64,000 bases of DNA, taken from the NCBI GenBank assembly GCA_045837725.1, contig JBEWZL010000179.1, forward strand, positions 124,001 through 188,000, given 5' to 3'. This stretch comes from Vermamoeba vermiformis. Lineage: Eukaryota. The position numbers and the translations under genes are program-made. Under the pieces are notes generated by a model that saw only the letters and a list, made by a program, of their open reading frames with translations, did not search any database and was not told the DNA's origin. Every line of letters starts with the position of its first letter. Within the stretch, counting starts at the first letter, position 1. Of the stretch, positions 1,877 through 55,000 are shown piece after piece.

Positions 1877-2573
1877 CTACGCAATCATAAGTATGAAGTA
1901 ATTACGACGGAATTTAAGTGTAAATTGCAAAAGCGAATTCGATTCTCTTACCTCAACAAACAGCGTGACGTGACGTGCTAGTATATGATTGATTCTAAAA
2001 TACAAAAGTGTTTAGTGTTTCATGAAGACTGCAAGGCAACCTTTTTATACCTGCCTAAATTTCCAAGCGTTACTTTACCCGATGTGAATCAGCGGAGATT
2101 GCAATCTGGCGTGTAACGTGTTTTCTAACACTAATGCGGCACGTAATTCCGGTACAATAAACGTGTATTTTCGAGCGGGTGTACTTTGATCGTGATTAGA
2201 TCCGTTGACAGGATCTCCATTTGTATAGCTGATAAAATATATTAAAACATTAACCAATTTAGTTTGTGCCACGAGCGTATGTTGATTAATTATTCGAATG
2301 CGTAAAGAAACAATTTCCAGAGTCGCAACACAACAAAAATCGCAAAAATGCACATAAAGCAAGATACGCAAAATAAATACGTAATGTAATTTTACATAAT
2401 TAGGTCTAATTTTAAACTGATTGGTAAAATAAATTAATACAAACCTGTAGAAAAGGTCCGTCAAATCCCATGCCAGGAGACACAGTTGCGTTCAGATATT
2501 TGCGCGACGTTAGTAGCATCGTTTGTTTGTTAAGTTGAAGGTGGAATTCCAAGCTAAATGCTTTGCCTTCGGC

Positions 2574-5800: not shown

Positions 5801-7099
5801 CAGTCTGAAAAAGCCTGAGAATCGCTGTTCGCCGCTGCACGAGCGTTCATTCCCAACACAAGTTCAATAACTGCCACCAACTTCTTCTCTTTTCTCAATT
5901 ATCGTGCTTTGTACGTACTATTCGCATTGATTTATATTATATCCCTAATTAGTTTGAGCAGAAGCAACAGGCTGGATCCGATCGAGATCACCGAATTTCT
6001 CCTTGATGAATTAATACCAATGGTATGTCAATTATTCGCCAGATTGTAACACTAATAATAATGATTCAGGGGAATGTGAGCAGCACGCATATTGGAACTC
6101 TTCTGAATAAGATTGATCTGGAAACAAGAGAGGATCTGAAATTGTTCGGATTCGAACCTGTCATGAGCAAATTTATTAGTGTTTCAACGTGCAAGAAAGA
6201 TGTAGATTATATGAATTCAGATTATCAGCAGAATAGTATGTATAAGCTCTTAGCAATTGTTTGCTAACCTTTGTCGCAGATCCGAGCGACCACTTTGGTA
6301 GCATTAGTCCCGTTCCAAATACAGCACCAATAGTAACAAATAAGCAGCCTAGGGTTTTCAATCGCATCAAAGGCACAATCCTTGTTGTCACTGAAGAAGA
6401 GCGACAGTTTTGCGAACACCACAACATTAAAATTCAAGCCAACAACAGAGTCGACGCTAATTCATTTTTGAAGCATACAAGCCGGAAGAGAGCGCACAAG
6501 CATTACACAAAAGATCGATTGAGCCGCCCACAGAATGCAGAGAGTACGAGCACTTGTCTTGTTAATCAGCCTAGCTTCGTTGCTCCGTCAACAGCCCAGT
6601 ATCAGCACAAAGCTTGGTATTGGATTAATGAGAATGATACGCTCAAATTGGCTTACCTAATCCAAGCTCTAAAGCCACGAAAAAGTACAGTTGTTAGTGC
6701 GAAAAAGGGAGAGTGAGAAAAAGTGTACGTTGCTGAATCGAATTAAGACTCATAGTAACCTTAATTAGGACATACGAGTTGATTCCTAGTGTTGACCAGA
6801 AGAACGAAGATTACAGCTGTATCTTCACGGCGCTAGATACTGTGTACAATTTAGCAAGCAAGACCTTAACTTGCATGCCACGAGACAACTGTTGGACGCG
6901 CGTTACGAGCAAATCAATATTGTCTCCTGTTACTGAAGATATCCCTTTTAACCCTTGGAGCATCAATAGTAAGACGGGCACTCAATACGCCTTGTTACGG
7001 GTACTAATTTCTCTGGATTTAGAGCACAATACCATCGAATTCACGCTCGCAGAACTGCAACCCTATTCCACTGTTTTAAACACTTGGTTGAATGACTAA
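2852..7099 (+). CDS. Multi-exon P-element/THAP9-like DDE transposase with in-frame TGA codons (recoded gene or pseudogene)
   Basis: Manual splicing gives GHRFTDASKAYFL..LHTPSVVTI (HTH region), WGL*FDS (first D), VSGDNAA (second D), QDYHHLFRK (DxxH), RDEQND, FFTYW and SLLSEKA*ESLFAAAR (catalytic E). Terminal TAA at 7097-7099. No frameshift is needed. Confidence 0.85.
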
Positions 7100-7114
7100 T
7101 TTAATGCGTAAACA

Positions 7115-7184
7115 TATTTGTGGCTTAAATTATGAAAGTAGCAAGTTTTCGGTGCGAATCTGGGTTGCATCTGATCTAAAAATA
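7115..7184 (+). promoter_or_regulatory. Possible non-canonical SECIS-like hairpin in the transposase 3' UTR
   Basis: ATGAA (7132-7136) and TGAT (7172-7175) have SECIS-like spacing, with GTAGC/GTTGC and TTCG/CGAA pairings between them and a lower helix TATTTGTGG/CTAAAAATA. The apical AA is missing. Confidence 0.35.
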
Positions 7185-38069: not shown

Positions 38070-41000
38070 TTAAGAATACATTGAAAACTCTTCCTCTTCT
38101 TTGAACAAATACGTGCCATCAGTCACTGTCATGCGTTGATCGATCGGTGCTAAGTATTCAAGGCGTGAGAGTGGATCCAACGCCGAAGGGTCTCTAATAC
38201 CCGTTTCCCTAAAAACATTGTCAGTGTAAGGCACTTTAAATAGACACCTGTATAGCGTACCATAATGTGAGAGTGCGCAATGTGTGCAGTTTGGTGAGCG
38301 TGCCAACAACACCTTTAGTAATTAGAGGACTGCCGAGGTCGAGTGAAGTCAAGTGCGTGAGACCTGACAGCGCATTGACGCCGTGATCAGTGGTTTCGAT
38401 GCAAAAAGCTATTTTGAGACTTTCAAGGCTTGTGAGGGCTGCAACAAAAATGAGCAATGGAACACCAATTGAAAGTTAAGCACAGCTCTACTTACATCCA
38501 ATAGTGACGAGACTCATGTCACTGATGCGACAGTAGGCCATCGATAGTGATTTGAGATTAGTAAGGCCTAGGAAGGTGCAATAGTTAGGTTTGTTTGAGT
38601 ATGACAAAGATGACACTCACATCTGAGATATTCAATGCCGTCATCATGTACCAATGTGCGATTGAGATCTAACTTCTCCAAGTTGACTAATTTGGCTAAA
38701 CATGACAATGTAACTGCATCGCTCTCAGTGTTGGCGAGGGACAGGTCACGCAAGTCCGTCAAGTCTGTTTTCAATCAATAAATAAGCTAACAGAGGTACC
38801 TAGTAATAAGCGATGCGTACCTGCTAAGTATGGAGCCACTTCGTTGTTGACTTCAGAATTGGTGTTCAAGTACAACGTCATCAAGTGCGACAAGTGTGCC
38901 AGGGCCCACAGACTTTGAGCTGAAAGTGTGACGAACGAACAGTCCAAAAACATTAAGCTCGTGAGTTCTGCGGGTCGTAATGGTTAAAACAACTAGTTGT
39001 AGCTAGTGAGAACAAAAAGAAGAATACGTACTTGAAATGTGGTGAAAACTTTCATCCGTGACTCGTGTCGCTTTGATGACCAGGGAATTCAAACTCGACA
39101 AATCTAGGCGGTGCATTGTTAGCAACGAAAGAACAAGGGGAAAAGTAGATGGCTAAAAGGCAAAAAAAGATATGGCCATTCCAGGGATCGAACCTGGGAC
39201 CCTCGCGTTATTAGCACGATGCTCTAACCAACTGAGCTAAACGGCCGTTGTTGATCCGTCGGTCAGCAAAAATAGGGCCTGGTTCGATCGGGAACGAATG
39301 CAGAATCTCAGAACGCAAAAGAGCCTGGGGAAGGCAAGCAAAGCTATTTCGTAACGAGCCTCCGTGTTTTCTTATTATAAGCAATTGGTACCGCACTTGC
39401 CACCTGCAGGCACTATCGCATGTTAACAAAAAAAAAGGTCATAAGGAAAACTAGGACCTTTGAGGAGAGGAACACCAGCTTGCTTGCGCAAAAGGCAAAA
39501 AACAAATTCCGATACCGGGAGTCGAACCCGGGTTTCATGGGTGAGAGCCATGTGTGCTGCCGCCTACACCATATCGGAATGGTTGAGGGTCGAGCAAAAT
39601 TTTTAGCAGCTCGGTGGTTCGAAGTGAAGAAGCTCAAGGTGGCCCTCTTGCTGCTGGCTCCTTCGTTCTCTCTGTCTTTCGTGAGAATCTGGATCTGCGT
39701 ACGTAATATTGGTCTACTGCTGTCTTAGCATTCGCTGCCCCGACATTTGCAAGAGAGCTGTTAGAGTACTTGGGTGGAGTTTCAGATTGATTGGTTTACA
39801 ACTGACGTTGCTTGCTTTTTTGTCGTGAAAACCGAGTAGCGAAGCGACGTACCGTTCTACGACTATTCAGATAACTTAAATGCCCTTTCATTAATTTTAA
39901 AATAAAAATTCATTTTCGTCTGCTTTTCGACAAAAAAAATAGTATCGCACGGCATCCATATACAAGCACAATAAGGTAAAAAGCAAATGGTTCCACTCGG
40001 AATCGAACCGAGGACCTACTGCGTGTTAAGCAGATGTGATAACCAACTACACCATGGAACCTTGTTGGTGCGAAGCCGCGGAACGAAATTGAGTCGCCCG
40101 CAAAAATCGAACCAGGCGTGCTGCAAGGCTTAGCGATAGGTAAGTACTGTTATGTTCGCCCAATGTTCCACGCGAAGTGTTTGCACGATTGAAGTTTGTC
40201 TGTTCTTCTTGCGTTGGGGTGAAAATGTGCGGGCAACGATATGTCATGCATCACTCGAGATACGTGCAAACAAAAAGAAAACGTCTGATTTCTATGCGCT
40301 TAGATCAATGCACGAGGAGTGCTGGGTTCTAGGCTTTCTGATCAATGCACGAACTAGAATTTCATTAGTTGGTGAACTGCTCCAAGTAATGAGTTACGAC
40401 AATTGATTTGAATTTGTTGCAATATATTCGTCGCTAGAGCTCGTAGTACTTCGCACTTCGTGTTAGGCTGATTGCCGACCCCTCAATTTGTACTGACTTG
40501 TTCAGGTTATGACCGACAAGCGATCATATCTTCGCTCTCAGCACAACGCGCTAGCAAATATGCCCATCGTAGCAGTGATAAGCACGAGTTAGATGGCAAT
40601 TAGAAGCTTGCCAGTTTGGTCCAGTGAGATCATAATTGATAAAAATTTTAAAGTCAATCAATAATGTTCGGACACAAAGAATACGCAAAAAAATAGTATC
40701 GCACAGCATCTATATACAAGCACAATAAGGCAAAAAGCAAATGGTTCCACTCGGAATCGAACCGAGGACCTACTGCGTGTTAAGCAGATGTGATAACCAA
40801 CTACACCATGGAACCTTGTTGATGCGCCGTGTCGTGATCAATTCGAGTCGCCCCGAATCAAAGGCTCCAAGCTGCCAATGGTGTTGGTTCTGTGCTTGCC
40901 CGTACTGCCCCTTCAACTGCAGCGTAGACATTGTATCTACGATAAATATAATAAACGCTTCGAAAGAAAACAATGGCCGAGCGCGACCTGTTATTTGAAG

Positions 41001-42323
41001 CTGCGCGTGTCTGGTCTCTATCATTGTCCAACGCAGCTGTACCAGTACCGTGGCTGTAGCTCCGTCGAACTTTTGAACGACGTCCGTCAGATCGAGAAAT
41101 GTTTCTCAACCAAGCCGTGATAGCTCAACTGGTAGAGCGACAGACTGAAGATCTGTAGGTTTCCGGTTCAACTCCGGATCGCGGCATCTATTTTTTGGAT
41201 CTGGTTCTCATCAAATTCACAGAATTTTTGATCTGTGCGCGAGTTCTGCCGCACTCATTTTTTTTTGTTCTCAGACACCAAATATAATATAAATAGTAGA
41301 TATATAACTTACTTTGACATATTTCCACGAAGCACGAGTCAGTTAACCAAAGGCTGCTTAGATCCAAGGAAGTCAAACTCGGCATTTCTTTGTTACGAAG
41401 CGTTAGATGCAATACACTTGTATATAGTCGCACCGTCATTATGTCAATTACTTACTAACAATTTGGTTGAGAATTGTGCCCGGTGTTGCCAGTGTAGCGC
41501 CAATATTTAAAGTCCTCAAGTTTGTTAACGCTACAGACATAATCAATTAAAGTACTAATCATAATATATAGTATACGCACTTGAAAGTCGAACAAATGCC
41601 TCGTCGTTGATTAATTTACATTTGTTTAGGACTAACGAGTTGAGGTTTTGAAGTCTGTCAATTATTTTCTGCACCCCTTCAGATTTGATTCGGTAGCCTA
41701 TCGTCGGATAATATGATGAATATTTAATATACTATATATTGAATCGTTACCTTTGCTAACATCGAGCATTAGTAGTTCTGGATGGTGTTCAGCGATAGTG
41801 TCTAGCCATTCGTCGGTCACGCGAGTTTGCCTGACCGCTATACTATGGTTAATATCAAGCACAAAAAAAAATCAATTTAGGCACATCAGACGAGTAACAG
41901 TATTTGACTCCGAGATTTTCTTTAAATAAGATCAAAGTGCGCGTCAAACTGAAAAATTATTTTTAATTTGGAAATATCGTATTTTAGAACTATATAAATA
42001 AATTAATATCCTTTCATACCAGTACTATGTTGTCCACTATTTATTAAAGTTGATCTGCTGAATGGTGACGCGTTCGTAAATTCTAATAGCAAACTGAGCT
42101 CGGTGATGCTGCAGTTATTAAATAACATCAATACTTCATTTGTTAGCGTTCTTGTAATACGTAATTGATACAATAAATGCTGAACTACTGATCCAGGCAG
42201 ATTTAGCTCGCCAGGTTTCAATAGAGGCGTTATCTTTTCATCTTCATCCACGCGATATATTTGATTTTTGACAATATAACGAGCAGCGAGATGTGTGAGG
42301 GGTGGTGGACTTCTCCTGCTCAT
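38070..42323 (-). CDS. Leucine-rich repeat protein whose 2.2-kb intron (39104-41312) hosts five tRNA genes
   Basis: PPPLTHLAARYIV N-terminus and LRR exons. The exon ending ..VEICQ A| (donor 41312) joins |AT TTG.. (acceptor 39104) in frame. Confidence 0.8.
39173..39246 (-). tRNA. tRNA-Ile(AAT)
   Basis: GGCCGTTTAGCTCAGTTGGTTAGAGCATCGTGCTAATAACGCGAGGGTCCCAGGTTCGATCCCTGGAATGGCCA; full cloverleaf with a downstream T-run. Confidence 0.96.
39507..39578 (-). tRNA. tRNA-Glu(CTC)
   Basis: TCCGATATGGTGTAG..CATGG CT CTC AC CCATG..GGTTCGACTCCCGGTATCGGAA. Confidence 0.95.
39988..40061 (-). tRNA. tRNA-Val(AAC), copy 1
   Basis: GGTTCCATGGTGTAGTTGGTTATCACATCTGCTTAACACGCAGTAGGTCCTCGGTTCGATTCCGAGTGGAACCA. 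Confidence 0.95.
40742..40815 (-). tRNA. tRNA-Val(AAC), copy 2
   Basis: Identical to copy 1, with a shared ~55-bp 3' flank. Confidence 0.95.
41114..41186 (+). tRNA. tRNA-Phe(GAA)
   Basis: GCCGTGATAGCTCAACTGGTAGAGCGACAGACTGAAGATCTGTAGGTTTCCGGTTCAACTCCGGATCGCGGCA followed by a TTTTTT terminator. Confidence 0.96.
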
Positions 42324-47779: not shown

Positions 47780-49362
47780 TTACATTACAATACAATTGCG
47801 ATTGTTTGTGGCATTAGTATTGGTGTTATTGTTGCTCAGCTCGTCGTCAATCTCCATTCCATCGCCATCACTCGCGTACGGATTTTTCCGCTTGTATTTT
47901 GACGGCAAACCACGTAGTTCTTCAAAAAATATTCTCCAATCAGGTGATAGGCATTCGTAAGGGTCTTCTACAGGCTTTTCAAGTATTCTGAACTCAAACG
48001 GACCGTTTTGAATCCGCTTCCGATCCTCATCTACTTTCCAATCAAACAGACAGGCAGAAGTGTCTTGGAACTAGTATAAACCGTTAGTATAAGTAATATA
48101 GATGATATTTAACTTACAAAAGGATTTAACTCTACGATTTGAATGGATCCATCGTCAAACACTACAAAATCAACAATGTAATTTTGTTGCGGCACCAAAT
48201 CTTTAATCTTTGCGTGAAATTCCTTGATTTGTTGCTCAATCAACGCTTTTCTCGGCGGCAGATCTTTAAAATACTGCAAGTAACAGTACTGCGACACCGC
48301 ATTCAAACTCTTATTATACACAAAGCCTAATATAAACAGATTAGTAATATTACTATGATTAATATACGATTATTACCTCTAAATTCCATGCTTGCATTCA
48401 TCGGCCGCCATTCTCGAATAATAATATCTAATTTAAACGCGTTTGGAAATTCCAAAGCCCTACGAGATTTTAAGTATATATGCTCGGTATATATTTGATC
48501 CTTGTATTTACCTTTGCAAATCTTCGCGGATTCGTGAGCTTGTCAATAATAGCTGTTAAAGAAAAAAATTAAAAAATCTTTTCAGATTATGAGATCCATT
48601 GATATTATCTTCGAATGAATACGTGCCTCGATGGCTTCACGTCCGTTTTGTACTCGCAGTGCAGTTCTCGATGCTTGGACAAATGCACAGGTGTCTTCAT
48701 TTGGTGATCCATCGCTGTGTTCCAGTTCCTCGAGCAGCGCTTGTTTTAATCGAGCATTGACTACTGACGCCAAGGCATCTTTAGGGCTACGGGCGCGTTA
48801 GTGTTATCGTATAGTGGGGCATGTTATGTAATTACCTTCGTGTGCTGAGTTTGACGAAAGCACATCCATTAAATTTAGTTTTAATTATTGCGTCAATTTC
48901 GTTTATAAACTGCAAAATATTTTAATTAACATTGATTCAATATCTAATATATAATATCTAGCACTTACTCGTTCTATTATTCTTGTATCTTGATCTGATA
49001 GAGATCGTTTTAAACACGCGTCATGCAATATTCGCATTTCTTGTTCTCGTAGTGGAAAAAATTCTGTTCTTGGTGTATAATCTCGAAGAGTATCATACCT
49101 AACATTTATAAAGCTATTAGATGATTCTGTAATTTATTAAATAATAAATTTCTAAATGTTAAATTTTGGAACTGAGCTCCAGGCAATTGAATAATTTTAA
49201 TACGGTCGTTATAATATAGATTATACTATTAAATTACCATGTTTCTATTGCAAAGTCAAAAATATATTTGGTCCTCTGAAAAAAGAACTTATGGCTCTCG
49301 ATCTTCTTTTTAGTTTCTTCACTTATTTCCTCGCCTGGTTCTCCAGGTACCTCTATCTCCAT
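47780..49362 (-). CDS. Cdc123/D123-related (R2K clade) ATP-grasp enzyme ending in a CaaX box
   Basis: FVKLSTRSPKDA, SSRIREDL, IREW, EFRGFV, AVSQY, IVDF, IVELNPF, ACLFDW and GPFEFR motifs; C-terminus NNRNCIVM*. Confidence 0.85.
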
Positions 49363-49625
49363 ATTATTACGAACAGCTTAATAAATAAATATAGCTGTTG
49401 TCTTCGTGCTGCCGATAATGAAAAAATCTAAAAATATCTCGTTTGCAATCAATGAACTCAATAACGTTAAATTTAATAATGAAAATATATAACAGCCTTA
49501 TCATACAACAGGTCTCATAATTTGCTTCGGCTAATGTATCTACCAAATATAGTAACAATCAATAAACTAGTACTTTCGGTTGGTGTCAAATTCAAATGCT
49601 TTATCTAACAGTGTAATGCTATATA

Positions 49626-51101
49626 TTAATTATTGTTATTATTATTCACATTCTCAACATTGGTGTTGCTCTCTAATTGATTAGTGCGTTGTAATTCAAT
49701 TGCTTTTTTATACGGGGGATTAATAGGCGGCTGTAAAACATCGCGGTGTTTGTATTCCTCGCTAGGATTTAACTATAATGATAATAGTAGTGTCAATTAG
49801 GTGTGATAATCGATAATAAGTGCAAATACGTACTTGAAGGGGATAATTCTGATCTGAATCAAAACCGCTCAAATCGCCGCATGCCACAAACGGCACAACA
49901 ATTCTGTTGGTACCAATCTCTTCGTTTCCAGGGCCTATAATAATATTAACACTGTGCCTCTGCGAATAATATAAAGCACGTACCGTAGCCGTGGTCTAAG
50001 AGCGGATCAATCATCGTGGGGAAAAATCCTTCAGGAGGCGAGTAATTTTGGCCGACAATAAAGGATTCTATTGTAAAACTATTAGTACAGCATTTTAACT
50101 ATTGTTGTTATAGTACCAATGCTCGAGTTACGGCTGCTCTTGGGCTTGACAATAGTGACCATTGGGAAGAATACTTTGAGCTGCGAGTACAGCAATGTGG
50201 TGTCCTTGCCACGGAAAATCTTTGCAACGAATGTGCCACCAGGGCGCAACAAATGTGTGGTCAAATTGAGTGCCTGAAAAGTAATTAGTACGAGTGTGTC
50301 GGGGCATATTGAAGATGTGTTCGTGACTTACAGCAAGCAATAATTGAGCTTGGACGTATTCATCAATGTCGTGCATGCCGGTCACTATAATTATATTGGT
50401 TAATTAGTGGTAAAAACAATTGTTATAATGTGAGGAAGTACCGTCAGGAGCACCGTCGCAAATAACAAGATCTGCCAATTTGCCGTTGAATACATCGATA
50501 ACTGACTTTACGGTCGATAACTTGGTGATATCTCCTTTAATTTGATGCACGCCCTTCAAGGGAGCCATATCTTGAATATCTACACTCACGATCTGCACTT
50601 CAGGATCGCTAAACCAAATAATTATTCATTTGTCTAATCACCGTTAATTATTTTTGTTCGTACTCTTGGTTAGGTTCGTATATTTTTCTGCTCAATACTT
50701 GAGTCCAACTGCCTGGCGCAGCGCACAAATCCACGGCTCGTTTAACGCCTATCATTAACAGAATAATTTTAATAATGCATTAAAAATATTACAATCGTGT
50801 GTACGATTATGATATGATCGAGCGATTCATTATTTTCATCGGTTTAAATTCTGTTTAATTTCGCAGACGCGATCGAGATCCAACGATTCAAAGTTCTTCG
50901 TGCCATTATAACTGTTATTTACTTACCCTCGAATATGTTAAATTTTTCATCAATTTGTAACAGTTTAAAAGCTGATCGTGCTCGCCATCCTTCTTCTTTG
51001 GCTTTTCGATAGAAAATATCCTACACACAACATTATTGCGCATTCATAAACACTACTTAAATATCGACACTCACTCTTTTGTCTTTTGAAGCACGACCCA
51101 T
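49626..51101 (-). CDS. TRM7: tRNA (cytidine32/guanosine34-2'-O)-methyltransferase Trm7/FTSJ1
   Basis: [52 protein letters not shown] and KPKSSRNSS. Confidence 0.96.
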
Positions 51102-51545
51102 TGTTGCTCGTTGTATTGGATGAAAAAATATTAGATCCCGAAGTTGTGACTGAAGTTTGCTTGCGATTATTAATCAATGACAATACCATCATGAATCATT
51201 AGAAAGCCTGCCATAGTACTCGAACCAAAGGGGTCCTTTGTGTGTTTGGCCGAAAATGAACTGTCACGCGACGTATCAAACCCAACTTTCTTGCGCTTTT
51301 GTTTGTTACAGATCCACTGCCCATGTGATGAGCAACACAATTGCGCGATAATATTTCATTCATATAGTGTACATAGCAACATAACGGGTAAGCCTACAAG
51401 GCCTCGAATTTTCCAACTATGAGAGAGTGACTAATTTTGCACAAATAATGATAAAATTTCCTACGTTAATGCGCGATAAAGATTAATTAAAACTATAATT
51501 TCTTTTAGCCTGTAAATAATAATTAATTATTTTCTTTAGATAAAA

Positions 51546-51779
51546 ATGAGCAGTCAAGACAACCAAGCGTTGTTAGCGCAATCTAATACAAAAAGTATTG
51601 ACAACAAAGCAAATATTAAAGACGAAGAAAGTCTGCTTCCAAAGAAACAAGGGATCGACTGGGAATTTGTTTGGGAAGAAATTAAGTGATATTGTAAATA
51701 CTCAGGTCCTGTCATTATCTTCGTAGCTATTGTAGTAATAGTATGTATATGTGTAATTGTCTTTATGACGAAGAAATAA
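51546..51779 (+). CDS. Putative new 77-aa tail-anchored selenoprotein (UGA at codon 48)
   Basis: MSSQDNQALLAQSNTKSIDNKANIKDEESLLPKKQGIDWEFVWEEIK-TGA-YCKYSGPVIIFVAIVVIVCICVIVFMTKK-TAA. Probable 5' UTR intron at 51388-51539, SECIS-type hairpin and AATAAA downstream. Confidence 0.75.
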
Positions 51780-51811
51780 CGAGATCTGAGCTCAACTTTC
51801 CTATCACTTAC

Positions 51812-51885
51812 GAGTTATTGGCTATGACGACGCTCAATATAATCCATTAATAAGGACATTGATGTGCTCTGATAATAGATAACTC
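51812..51885 (+). promoter_or_regulatory. SECIS element (type II-like)
   Basis: Helix I GAGTTATT/GATAACTC; core ATGAC (51824-51828) opposite TGAT (51870-51873); helix II including TCAAT/ATTGA; unpaired AA (51841-51842); apical mini-stem TCC/GGA. Confidence 0.75.
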
Positions 51886-52004
51886 AACAATGTAAATAAA
51901 TTATTTTAGTGTTGGTCTTGCAGTGGTATTATTTAAATTAAATTTGGAAAAGAAAAGGAGGAAAAAAGGGGAAAAAAAGGTCAACGGTGTTGTGTCTTGC
52001 GCAG

Positions 52005-55000
52005 TCGTCGATCCACCGCATCTGCACTGGTCAGATCATCGATGGCATTGCTATGGCCGTGAAAGAATTAATTGAAAATAGTATCGATGCAGGAGCTACG
52101 ATGATAGGTAATTATTCATTAAATTGGCAATTTTTACAACAAATTAATATTATATAATTCCTTTTACCCCTTTACTGCATTGCTCAATGTTAAATTAACA
52201 ATATAATAATTAATTATAAATAGAAATAAGAATAAAGGACCATGGAGGAGACTCCGTTGAGGTGGCAGACAATGGCTGTGGTATCGATCCTGAAAATTAC
52301 GCCAATATTGGTAATTATCGATGACGAAGACATGAATCGTATTTAACGCTTTAATATAATAATAGCACGCCTTCATTGTACTTCTAAACTTCAGTCATTT
52401 GAAGATCTGACATCACTGCAATCTTTTGGCTTCAGAGGTGAAGCTCTTAGTGCCCTCGCTGCCCTATCGGAACTCACTATCACTACACGTACTGCCAAAC
52501 AAGCCAAAGCTACTAAACTTACCTTTGATCATCACGGTAGAATAAATTTTATTGCTGGATCCGTTCAAATAATTCCTAATAATTTTTGTAGGTGAATTAC
52601 AGAGTCAAGAAGCTACTAATGGTCGACCAGGCACTACAGTATGCTTCAAAGATTTTTACAAAAATATTCCAGTGCGTTATGCGACCATGCACCAGAACAT
52701 CAAAAAAGAATTCGCGCGCTTGCAGTTCATCATTCAATGCTATGCAATCATTTGCACTAAGATTAAGTTCATAGTATTCCATCAAACGAAGAAAGGGTAC
52801 GTTATTTAATTACTAGAAGTTAAATGCTAATTTTTTTCTAGGAATCGAGTGCGCATTTTACAAACCAACGGAACCTCGTTAAAAGACAATATTAGCTCAG
52901 TATTTGGTCCTCGATTAGTCCAATCAATGGTAGAAATCAAAGATCAAAACGAAATTTGCAGGTAAGTTTTTTGTTGGATCTGTTTTATTCAACGGTACTC
53001 AATTAATCTCTTGCCTATAGTCTGAGTGGCTATGTATTGTCAGGCGATTCATTTACCAAAACAGGAAATAATACGTGGAAGCCGACGACGGGCAATCAAT
53101 GTCAGTTCATATTTATCAACAAACGACCGGTGGACATACCTAAACTCAGCAAGGCTATTGCAGAAGTGTACAAGTCCTTTTTTGGCAAGACAGGACAGCA
53201 AAATCAACCGCCACCGCCAGCTTATGTTATCAACTTTGAACTGCCAACAGACGCGTACGACATTAACATCACACCTGACAAACGCACGGTGATGGTGCAC
53301 CAAGAGAATGAAATCATTGAAGTTGTGCAGCACTTGTTGCATCGCGTGATTGAACCTGCTCAAGGCGCGTATTCAGTGAACCAAGGAGACGATGAGGATC
53401 AAGAACACGAAGATATTTTGGGTGTGGATGACGAGAAAAAATCTGAAACGAAGAGCTCGAAAGAAGAGAAAAATAAAACGAGCGAGAAGAGCAAGGGACA
53501 AAATAAGAACAACAATTCAGGAGACGTTAAAGTACTTAGTCCTGCTGAAGAACGAGCGAATATGATCAATTCACTGAAACAAAAACTGAAGAAAAGTGGC
53601 GAGACGAAGAATGGCGCGAGGAGTAGCGATGAGCCGAAGAGCGACAGCATTGTTGAAAGCATTGTGAACGAAGACAAGAAAAAGAACAAAAAAGACAAGT
53701 TGACATTGAACAGCGACGGAGACTTGAGCGACAGTATTTACAACAACGTCAAAGAAAAATCACCGTCTGCAAAGTCCAAAAAACAATTAAAAATTGCAGC
53801 AGCCGCTTTGCTCGGAGATTCCGAAGACAGTTCAGAAGACGTCATTAGCAAGCTGTTGAAACTTTCGGGCAGCGAGAACTCAGACATTAAGCGGCTGAAT
53901 GAAAGTCAGTCAATGGACTTGAGTGGATTCCAGAGTGGCGGTGACAGCGACGAAGTGATTGATGACTTGAGCAAGTTAGAAGACGACGATCAAGTCGCGC
54001 GTGCAGAACAAGCGAAAAGAATGAAACAACAGTTGTTGTTGAAGACAGCTGTCACTGGTCCCAGTCCCTTCTTTGCCAAGCCCGCCGCGCAAACTAAACA
54101 AGTTGACAAGAGCCAGGACGAGGAAGAAGACTTGTTGAAGAACCCGCCTGTCATGTCAATTGAGGCCCTCGGCAAGGGCTCGAAGAAGAGCAAAGCGTTC
54201 CCTGTTCGATTGCACGCGTCAGCCAGCGAAGGTAGCGAAGAGTCATTGCCAATCGAGGCTAGCGAGTACGCGGCATTTAAGACTGGAAATGTCAAACCTG
54301 CCAAGTTTAAAATCGACAGCAGTGCCACGAGTGAGATGGAAAGCGAAGAAGAGCCACCAGTGGTCAACTTATTTAGACAAAATAAGCTCAAGAATAGCAA
54401 GGACACAACACTCAGTGCCAGCAACGAGTTAAAGAAGAGCAAACAAGAGGACAGATTGAAAATGATCGAGCAGCTCAAGTCCAAAAAGACAGGAAGTGTC
54501 AATAATAGCAGCAGCAACAACACTAATATAAATAATGCGCCGTTGAAATTGAGTGTCACACTGACCGACTCAACAAGTGTCAAAGTCAGTGCAAAAGACA
54601 CTAAGAAATCGAGTGAAAAGAACGAGCCATCTTGCTCACATGACCACGAGCACGATGACAAGGTGGAAGTGATTGAATTCACTGACGGCAATTCTGAAAT
54701 GTTGAAAAAGCATTTCGACTATGAGGCCAGCAATGACGATGAAAGTGATGAAATGAATGCGAACAATAATCAAAATGGATTCAAAACGACTGGATATACC
54801 TTGGACAAAAAAGGGTAAATATGGTTCTCTATTGTATTATTTAAGGTTTACTTGCTAACATTGTGTTCGATCAGCCGACCTGTCGTTGATTTCGAGATTG
54901 GGTATTATACTGAAAAATTCAAAGAAAAACAACGCCAAGCGAGACGCAATGCGAAAAAGAAGGCGCGAGATATGCCTGCAAGAAAATTTTTCACGCGCAT

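Follow-up and report, generated by a model that had tools for sequence, protein, structure and literature searches.

SelK and SelS (SELENOK and SELENOS) have an N-terminal transmembrane helix and carry their selenocysteine (Sec) near the C-terminus, and MSP, as stated in an initial annotation of the DNA studied here, spans the membrane several times. Tail-anchored proteins, among them SNAREs, cytochrome b5 and Sec61 beta, provide a further point of comparison; we know of none that contains Sec or whose anchor is encoded beyond a recoded stop codon, and we found no such protein in the literature either. Five selenoproteins are given for Dictyostelium in the accessible part of Lobanov et al. 2007 (PMC2375036), namely SPS2, SelK, Sep15, MSP and a deiodinase homologue. 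According to the same part of that paper, all five use a type II Sec insertion sequence (SECIS) in which UGUA precedes the core and the unpaired stretch is AAA, and MSP, found in Dictyostelium and green algae, has two Sec residues (PMC2375036). SPS2 is scattered through Amoebozoa and other protists, as far as the accessible text of PMC4561486 goes. Here we describe, in a stretch of 64,000 nucleotides (nt) from Vermamoeba vermiformis (contig JBEWZL010000179.1, positions 124,001 to 188,000; hereafter the window), a 77-codon gene that is very probably a real selenoprotein gene. Its in-frame UGA at codon 48 (UGA48) would be recoded to Sec via a SECIS in the 3′ untranslated region (UTR), and its product would end in a C-terminal membrane anchor. 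We favour this reading because the TGA is conserved, homologues carry Cys at the aligned position, substitutions past the TGA are biased towards third codon positions, and the hairpin is conserved.

The coding sequence (51546-51779, forward strand) comprises 77 codons plus the stop and runs from an ATG at 51546 to a TAA at 51777-51779, with the TGA at 51687-51689 as codon 48. The standard list of open reading frames gives just a 47-residue portion of this gene. With the TGA written as U, the C-terminal part of the 77-residue protein reads ...DWEFVWEEIK-U-YCKYSGP, followed by the 19-residue segment VIIFVAIVVIVCICVIVFM and by TKK. The initial annotation had proposed this 77-codon frame together with its TGA, its transmembrane segment and the terminal TKK-TAA, and all of these coordinates match the sequence. 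Orthologous frames at two other loci, the pattern of frame conservation and database homologues each support the coding sequence.

The two orthologous loci come from a scan of metagenome contigs, in which 83 stretches fit the search pattern and two, L001 and L002, were confirmed; the search for relatives in genome contigs gave 5 pattern matches and that in viral contigs 16, none of them confirmed. L001 and L002 are almost identical to each other, so that together with the window they provide two distinct hairpin sequences in total. Both are syntenic with the window, at a DNA identity of about 75-78%, and the collinear part, positions 49224-52539, is at 74-81%. The flanking genes also match (both named by eye): upstream, on the minus strand, lies one that resembles a methyltransferase gene, and downstream one that resembles MutL. 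We found the TGA at the same codon in L001 (2343-2345) and in L002, and the frame continues beyond it through YCKYSGPIIIFVTVVVVVCIFVIVFMTKK to TKK before ending in TAG. Over the 87 nt that follow the TGA, the window and L001 differ by 16 substitutions, 11 of which fall at third codon positions (P = 0.004 against an expectation of one third). Of the changed codons, nine still encode the same residue and five give a different one, conservative in each case. Furthermore, the sense frame shows the fewest residue changes of the six possible frames (5 of 29, with 7 to 13 of 28 or 29 in the others), and the distant homologues agree with the sense frame only. These data show a gene whose frame goes on past the UGA.

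Searching 1.84 billion representative proteins with HMMER gave six matches at E ≤ 0.001, five of which are real; P0005 (2281 aa) was removed as a spurious repeat match. A word-indexed search with the alignment recovered these five again and added P0008; together with P0009 and P0010, from a cluster look-up, the homologue set consists of eight proteins. The best reaches E 1.9e-36, and others, at 25-50% identity, have an invariant motif in common. The initial annotation had pointed to Cys- or UGA-aligned homologues as a check on its reading, and both kinds were found: three of the eight proteins (P0006, P0010 and P0007) pair Cys with the UGA, in addition to the TGA kept in L001 and L002. Two further proteins, P0008 and P0003 (the product of L001), end exactly before this column. 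In alignment A1, columns D38, W39, F41, V42, W43, E45 and K47 are invariant, and they belong to a conserved juxtamembrane motif from D38 to P55 (51657-51710, forward strand), DW.FVW.E.K-[U/C]-Y..Y..P, which is also supported by the structure model.

The remaining three homologues (P0002, P0009 and P0004), all from Logan, have W at the UGA-aligned column. Comparison with their relatives suggests that this W is probably a TGA translated under code 4. The gene calls of close relatives of the W forms stop at this same codon (P0003 alongside P0002, P0008 alongside P0004), and for P0002 we read the W as a code-4 TGA because the C-terminal half of this protein has the same residues as an RNA variant that carries the TGA (described below). 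The Logan-derived gene calls in the protein collection appear to take TGA as Trp in these short eukaryotic contigs, disguising a probable Sec codon as W.

A SECIS-like hairpin of type II lies in the 3′ UTR at 51812-51885 on the forward strand. In the minimum-free-energy (MFE) fold, helix I begins 32 nt past the TAA and pairs 51812-51819 with 51878-51885 over 8 bp. An internal loop separates helix I from the core, in which AUGA at 51824-51827 (AUGA(C) at 51824-51828) faces UGAU at 51870-51873, at a distance of 137 nt from UGA48. Helix II follows with 10 bp and two single-base bulges on its 3′ side, then an unpaired AUAA at 51839-51842, with a core-to-AA spacing of 13 nt, and finally a 3-bp mini-stem, UCC/GGA (51843-51845 with 51854-51856). 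The fold thereby reproduces the location and the parts of the hairpin as originally annotated, from the 8-bp helix I through the core, helix II and the AA to the mini-stem. UGAC at 51825-51828 opposite UGAU at 51870-51873 satisfies the UGAN/KGAW rule for the core of eukaryotic SECIS elements, as worded in the accessible part of the SECISearch3 paper (PMC3753652), and tandem G.A pairs are possible. The hairpin shares with the canonical type II SECIS, as far as the accessible texts describe it, the site in the 3′ UTR, helix I, the internal loop, the UGAN/KGAW core, helix II, the unpaired adenines and the mini-stem, and it differs in the two bulges of helix II and in a low model score, given below. 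It differs from the Dictyostelium elements, as these appear in the accessible part of PMC2375036, in having GGCU (ACAA in L001) and no UGUA before the core, and AUAA as the unpaired stretch.

The hairpin is conserved above its flanks. Identity between the window and L001 is 53/70 in the hairpin, 13/29 in the UTR before it and 32/72 after it, and the blastn block shared by the two stops at 51888, three bases beyond helix I. AUGA, AUAA and UGAU are identical in L001, and none of the internal-loop bases next to the core is the same. The MFE fold of L001 has the same layout, with a mini-stem loop of 4 nt. Helix II and the mini-stem have 13 predicted pairs, of which 10 are the same in L001 and 3 are kept by a one-sided change (A-U to G-U, G-U to A-U and U-A to U-G), with no pair broken; over two distinct sequences, this conservation of pairs is consistent with a structure, though no proof of one. 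An AATAAA at 51895-51900 on the forward strand, present where the initial annotation had placed it, is probably the poly(A) signal, judging from the sequence and from the AATAAA that L001 has about 25 nt past its own hairpin.

Sequencing reads retain the TGA, a point on which the initial annotation had asked for a check, both in DNA of the window and in RNA of a diverged copy. DNA run X1, probably from the source sample, gave a 387-nt contig that has the TGA and no difference to the window. Raw RNA-seq reads from X21 (15 reads) and X23 (20 reads), which carry the same species label, align to 51589-51790 at 90-95% identity. Because these reads all share one set of differences, their source is a diverged copy, either another isolate or a paralogue, rather than the window allele. 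None of the 26 differences falls at 51687-51689, where the depth is about 9 in X23 and about 2.5 in X21. Past the TGA, 6 of 8 changes in the RNA variant are at third positions (counted by hand), and its residues I46V, I57V and C69F are those of the C-terminal half of P0002. The reads run beyond the stop into sequence that does not align, the first bases of the 5′ arm of helix I being different. Among the X21 and X23 alignments there is no splice joint inside the gene. A 20-nt intron at 51686-51705 (GT..AG) that would remove the TGA was rejected: RNA reads cross it without a joint, its length is not a multiple of three, and 13 of 28 residues change in the alternative frame. A 193-nt contig from X4 is also identical to the window, and that X4 is RNA is only a guess. 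Small word shares with runs from soil, water, biofilm and roots do not enter the evidence.

Three side observations concern the X1 contigs in the region 51380-52040. The 387-nt contig spans 51527-51913, which is exactly the gene, the hairpin and the AATAAA, by constraint or by chance. Upstream of the gene, at 51397-51556, the contigs show two forms with 10 differences and one insertion, and length variants occur in the A/G-rich spacer at 51912-51997.

Several results weigh against the selenoprotein reading, some of which concern the hairpin. In the Rfam search of 96 nt, SECIS_1 came top of five families and the whole model was matched, but the score was 14.2 bits against a gathering cut-off of 35 (E 2.3); in the search of 501 nt, no SECIS family was among the results. 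The fold of the 121-nt stretch has a z score of -0.65, with 47 of 200 shuffles folding equally well or better, and is not unusually stable; the 83-nt hairpin alone has a z score of -2.75 (4 of 200 shuffles as good). The stability of the L001 hairpin is ordinary (z -0.43, 68 of 200 shuffles as good). Fold stability by itself says little on whether a hairpin is real or due to chance. In favour of the hairpin, a custom filter for SECIS-like elements found 51812-51885 as its sole match on both strands of the 64 kb, with a mean of 0.175 matches per dinucleotide shuffle over 40 shuffles. This filter, written after the candidate had been seen and thus not blind, required ATGA with a GA partner, 6 bp or more in helix I, 8 bp or more in helix II and an AA spaced 10-14 nt from the core. 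Helix I has only 6 bp in L001 versus 8 bp in the window, and none of the 13 pairs shows a double-sided compensatory change between the two distinct sequences compared. Beyond the hairpin, Rfam at the gathering threshold found five ordinary tRNAs and no tRNA-Sec in the 64-kb window, which contains no other part of the Sec machinery either. The RNA evidence comes from a diverged copy at low depth and not from the exact allele, and the RNA libraries appear unstranded. The three W homologues, which are protein calls, could have a true TGG. Finally, both species have an open antisense frame, in which 7 of 28 residues change.

Could UGA48 be decoded as Trp or Cys with no Sec involved, by near-cognate readthrough or under a variant nuclear code? 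In that case the protein would be real, and the gene would not be a selenoprotein gene. The W at the aligned column of three homologues and the Rfam score under the cut-off speak for such decoding. However, those W calls come from a single source, each with a close relative ended at the same codon, and the description of this protein collection says that some genes translate only with TGA=W. Furthermore, the RNA variant shares its C-terminal residues with P0002 yet shows TGA, the two Trp residues of the motif are encoded by TGG in both the window and L001, and open frames of up to 603 codons contain no TGA. Plain readthrough also leaves the conserved SECIS-shaped hairpin unexplained, and the pairing of Cys with TGA is the classic signature of Sec. 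We consider ordinary decoding of this codon unlikely.

If UGA48 were instead a true stop, the product would be a soluble peptide of 47 residues, and the downstream sequence would be conserved for another reason, for instance as a UTR element or through an antisense frame. Standard gene callers do end P0003 and P0008 at this codon, and antisense frame -1 is open in both species, but the changes after the TGA are biased towards third positions of the same frame, and the sense frame is the best of the six. Moreover, the distant homologues that have Cys continue past this column into a matching Y..Y..P and a transmembrane segment, and we regard a true stop as very improbable. The antisense frame itself lies at 51554-51715 on the minus strand (2169-2486, minus strand, in L001) and comes second among the six in conservation. 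It probably arises as a side effect of codon usage in the sense gene. A chance open frame next to a chance hairpin in AT-rich intergenic DNA, with no gene at all, would agree with the AT-rich region and with the unremarkable z score of the 121-nt fold. It hardly deserves consideration given homologues at E values down to 1.9e-36, further homologues at 25-50% identity with the invariant motif, a syntenic orthologue at the locus and RNA reads that cover a close copy.

Under the selenoprotein reading, we infer from the sequence that Sec is inserted at UGA48: a type II SECIS would recode this codon and give rise to the 77-residue product. Termination at the same codon would leave the 47-residue peptide without an anchor. 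In the full-length product, an N-terminal part that is disordered, acidic and cytosolic would lead into a Trp-rich juxtamembrane helix bearing the Sec, and the 19-residue C-terminal anchor would follow. The anchor corresponds to the transmembrane segment from V56 to M74 (51711-51767, forward strand), followed by TKK. The 19-residue Kyte-Doolittle mean peaks at residues 56-74 of the 77 with a value of 3.72, the highest in the protein, and both hydropathy and the structure model place the only transmembrane segment of the protein at its very C-terminal end. The corresponding segment is hydrophobic in every full-length homologue. In the structure model (mean predicted local distance difference test score, pLDDT, of 67), residues 1-38 are disordered and residues 39-76 form one helix. 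This helix begins with the D38-P55 motif, and the highest pLDDT of the model falls on its transmembrane part. Sec48 lies about 7 residues ahead of the anchor. The segment that holds it is moderately amphipathic (hydrophobic moment 0.34), and Sec48 is on its polar side, at an angle of about 139 degrees from the hydrophobic face. The model suggests a tail-anchored topology in which the Sec faces the cytosol, about 7 residues away from the bilayer, and in which its selenol would be exposed at the membrane surface. A redox role at this surface is a tentative proposal, either as a peroxidase or as a selenol relay or sensor with a thiol partner as its reductant. Cys50 cannot be the general resolving residue, because it is not conserved.

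Two additions that the initial annotation had made to its selenoprotein reading are not supported; the core of that reading (UGA48 as Sec, the SECIS and the anchor) is well supported. It had proposed a U-x-C motif, but the Cys at position +2 from the UGA is clade-specific and is replaced by A or G in distant homologues. It had also named two [DE]xxxLL sorting signals. Both dileucine-type motifs are present in the protein, DNQALL at residues 5-10 and DEESLL at residues 26-31, but they are not conserved across the homologues. DEESLL is kept in P0002, P0009, P0003, L001 and L002 and is absent from P0004, P0006 and P0007, and DNQALL is changed in L001. Because DEESLL is kept only in close relatives and DNQALL is lost even in L001, an endolysosomal localisation is an idea drawn from a non-conserved motif.

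With SELENOK and SELENOS, the protein shares its small size, a single transmembrane helix, a disordered cytosolic part, one Sec outside a thioredoxin fold and a SECIS in the 3′ UTR. It differs from them in its reversed topology, with the anchor at the C-terminus and the Sec 7 residues before it within a helical Trp-rich motif, and the Pfam scan shows no sequence relation. As in tail-anchored proteins, its single hydrophobic segment falls within the last 22 residues, which leaves no more than TKK as a luminal tail. As far as the accessible part of PMC2375036 describes MSP, the likeness lies in being a membrane selenoprotein with a narrow distribution in unicellular eukaryotes and a type II SECIS, and the difference in the number of Sec residues, two in MSP and one in the window protein. 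None of the five Dictyostelium selenoproteins, as listed there, is similar to the window protein.

Family searches gave a similar picture. A Pfam scan of five family members at E ≤ 10 returned Orf78 (E 0.012-0.035) and TMEM9 (E 4.4) and nothing else, each under its cut-off, which fits the earlier statement that the protein is unlike SelK, SelS and MSP. A profile search of the PDB gave one chance match (E 0.062), and a search of the protein Atlas with P0006 as query reached a best score of 0.83 and no family. We found no described family of this kind in the literature, where the selenoprotein lists in supplements may include one, and the family is probably undescribed. On balance, we lean towards the view that the gene is the founding member of a eukaryotic family whose proteins are tail-anchored and have one Sec, or Cys in some lineages, in the invariant motif DW.FVW.E.K-U-Y, located on the cytosolic membrane face. 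With the anchor encoded downstream of the UGA, selenium supply or recoding efficiency would set the balance between the anchored protein and the free 47-residue peptide.

Other features of the window were noted in passing. With a relaxed version of the hairpin filter, one extra weak match appears at 7092-7135 on the forward strand (helix I of 5 bp, -4.0 kcal/mol; 0.8 expected by chance), and it overlaps the end of an open frame at 6737-7099. Five ordinary tRNA genes stand within 2 kb at 39173-41186: Ile-AAT, Glu-CTC, two Val-AAC with identical scores, and Phe-GAA. The gene downstream of the selenoprotein gene (51987-52110 and 52214-52562, forward strand) has a MutL/PMS-type ATPase motif at its start (named by eye), which AT-rich introns of the GT..AG type, about 130 nt long, interrupt. 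There is no in-frame ATG just upstream of this motif, and a short first exon was possibly overlooked.

Selenoprotein genes are often truncated or overlooked by annotation, and in the present case five of the eight database relatives are mis-called, two as truncated proteins and three with W. The recoding mechanism is itself ordinary, like that of any eukaryotic selenoprotein gene, and the selenium-dependent switch of the anchor, raised in the initial annotation, is speculation. New eukaryotic selenoprotein families are rare and hence of interest to selenium biology. Here, with Sec placed directly ahead of the tail anchor, the anchor itself would depend on recoding, in a topology unlike that of the membrane selenoproteins known to us. 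With 77 residues and a 74-nt SECIS, this gene would offer a very small test case for Sec chemistry at a membrane surface and for the fate of tail anchors encoded beyond a stop codon.
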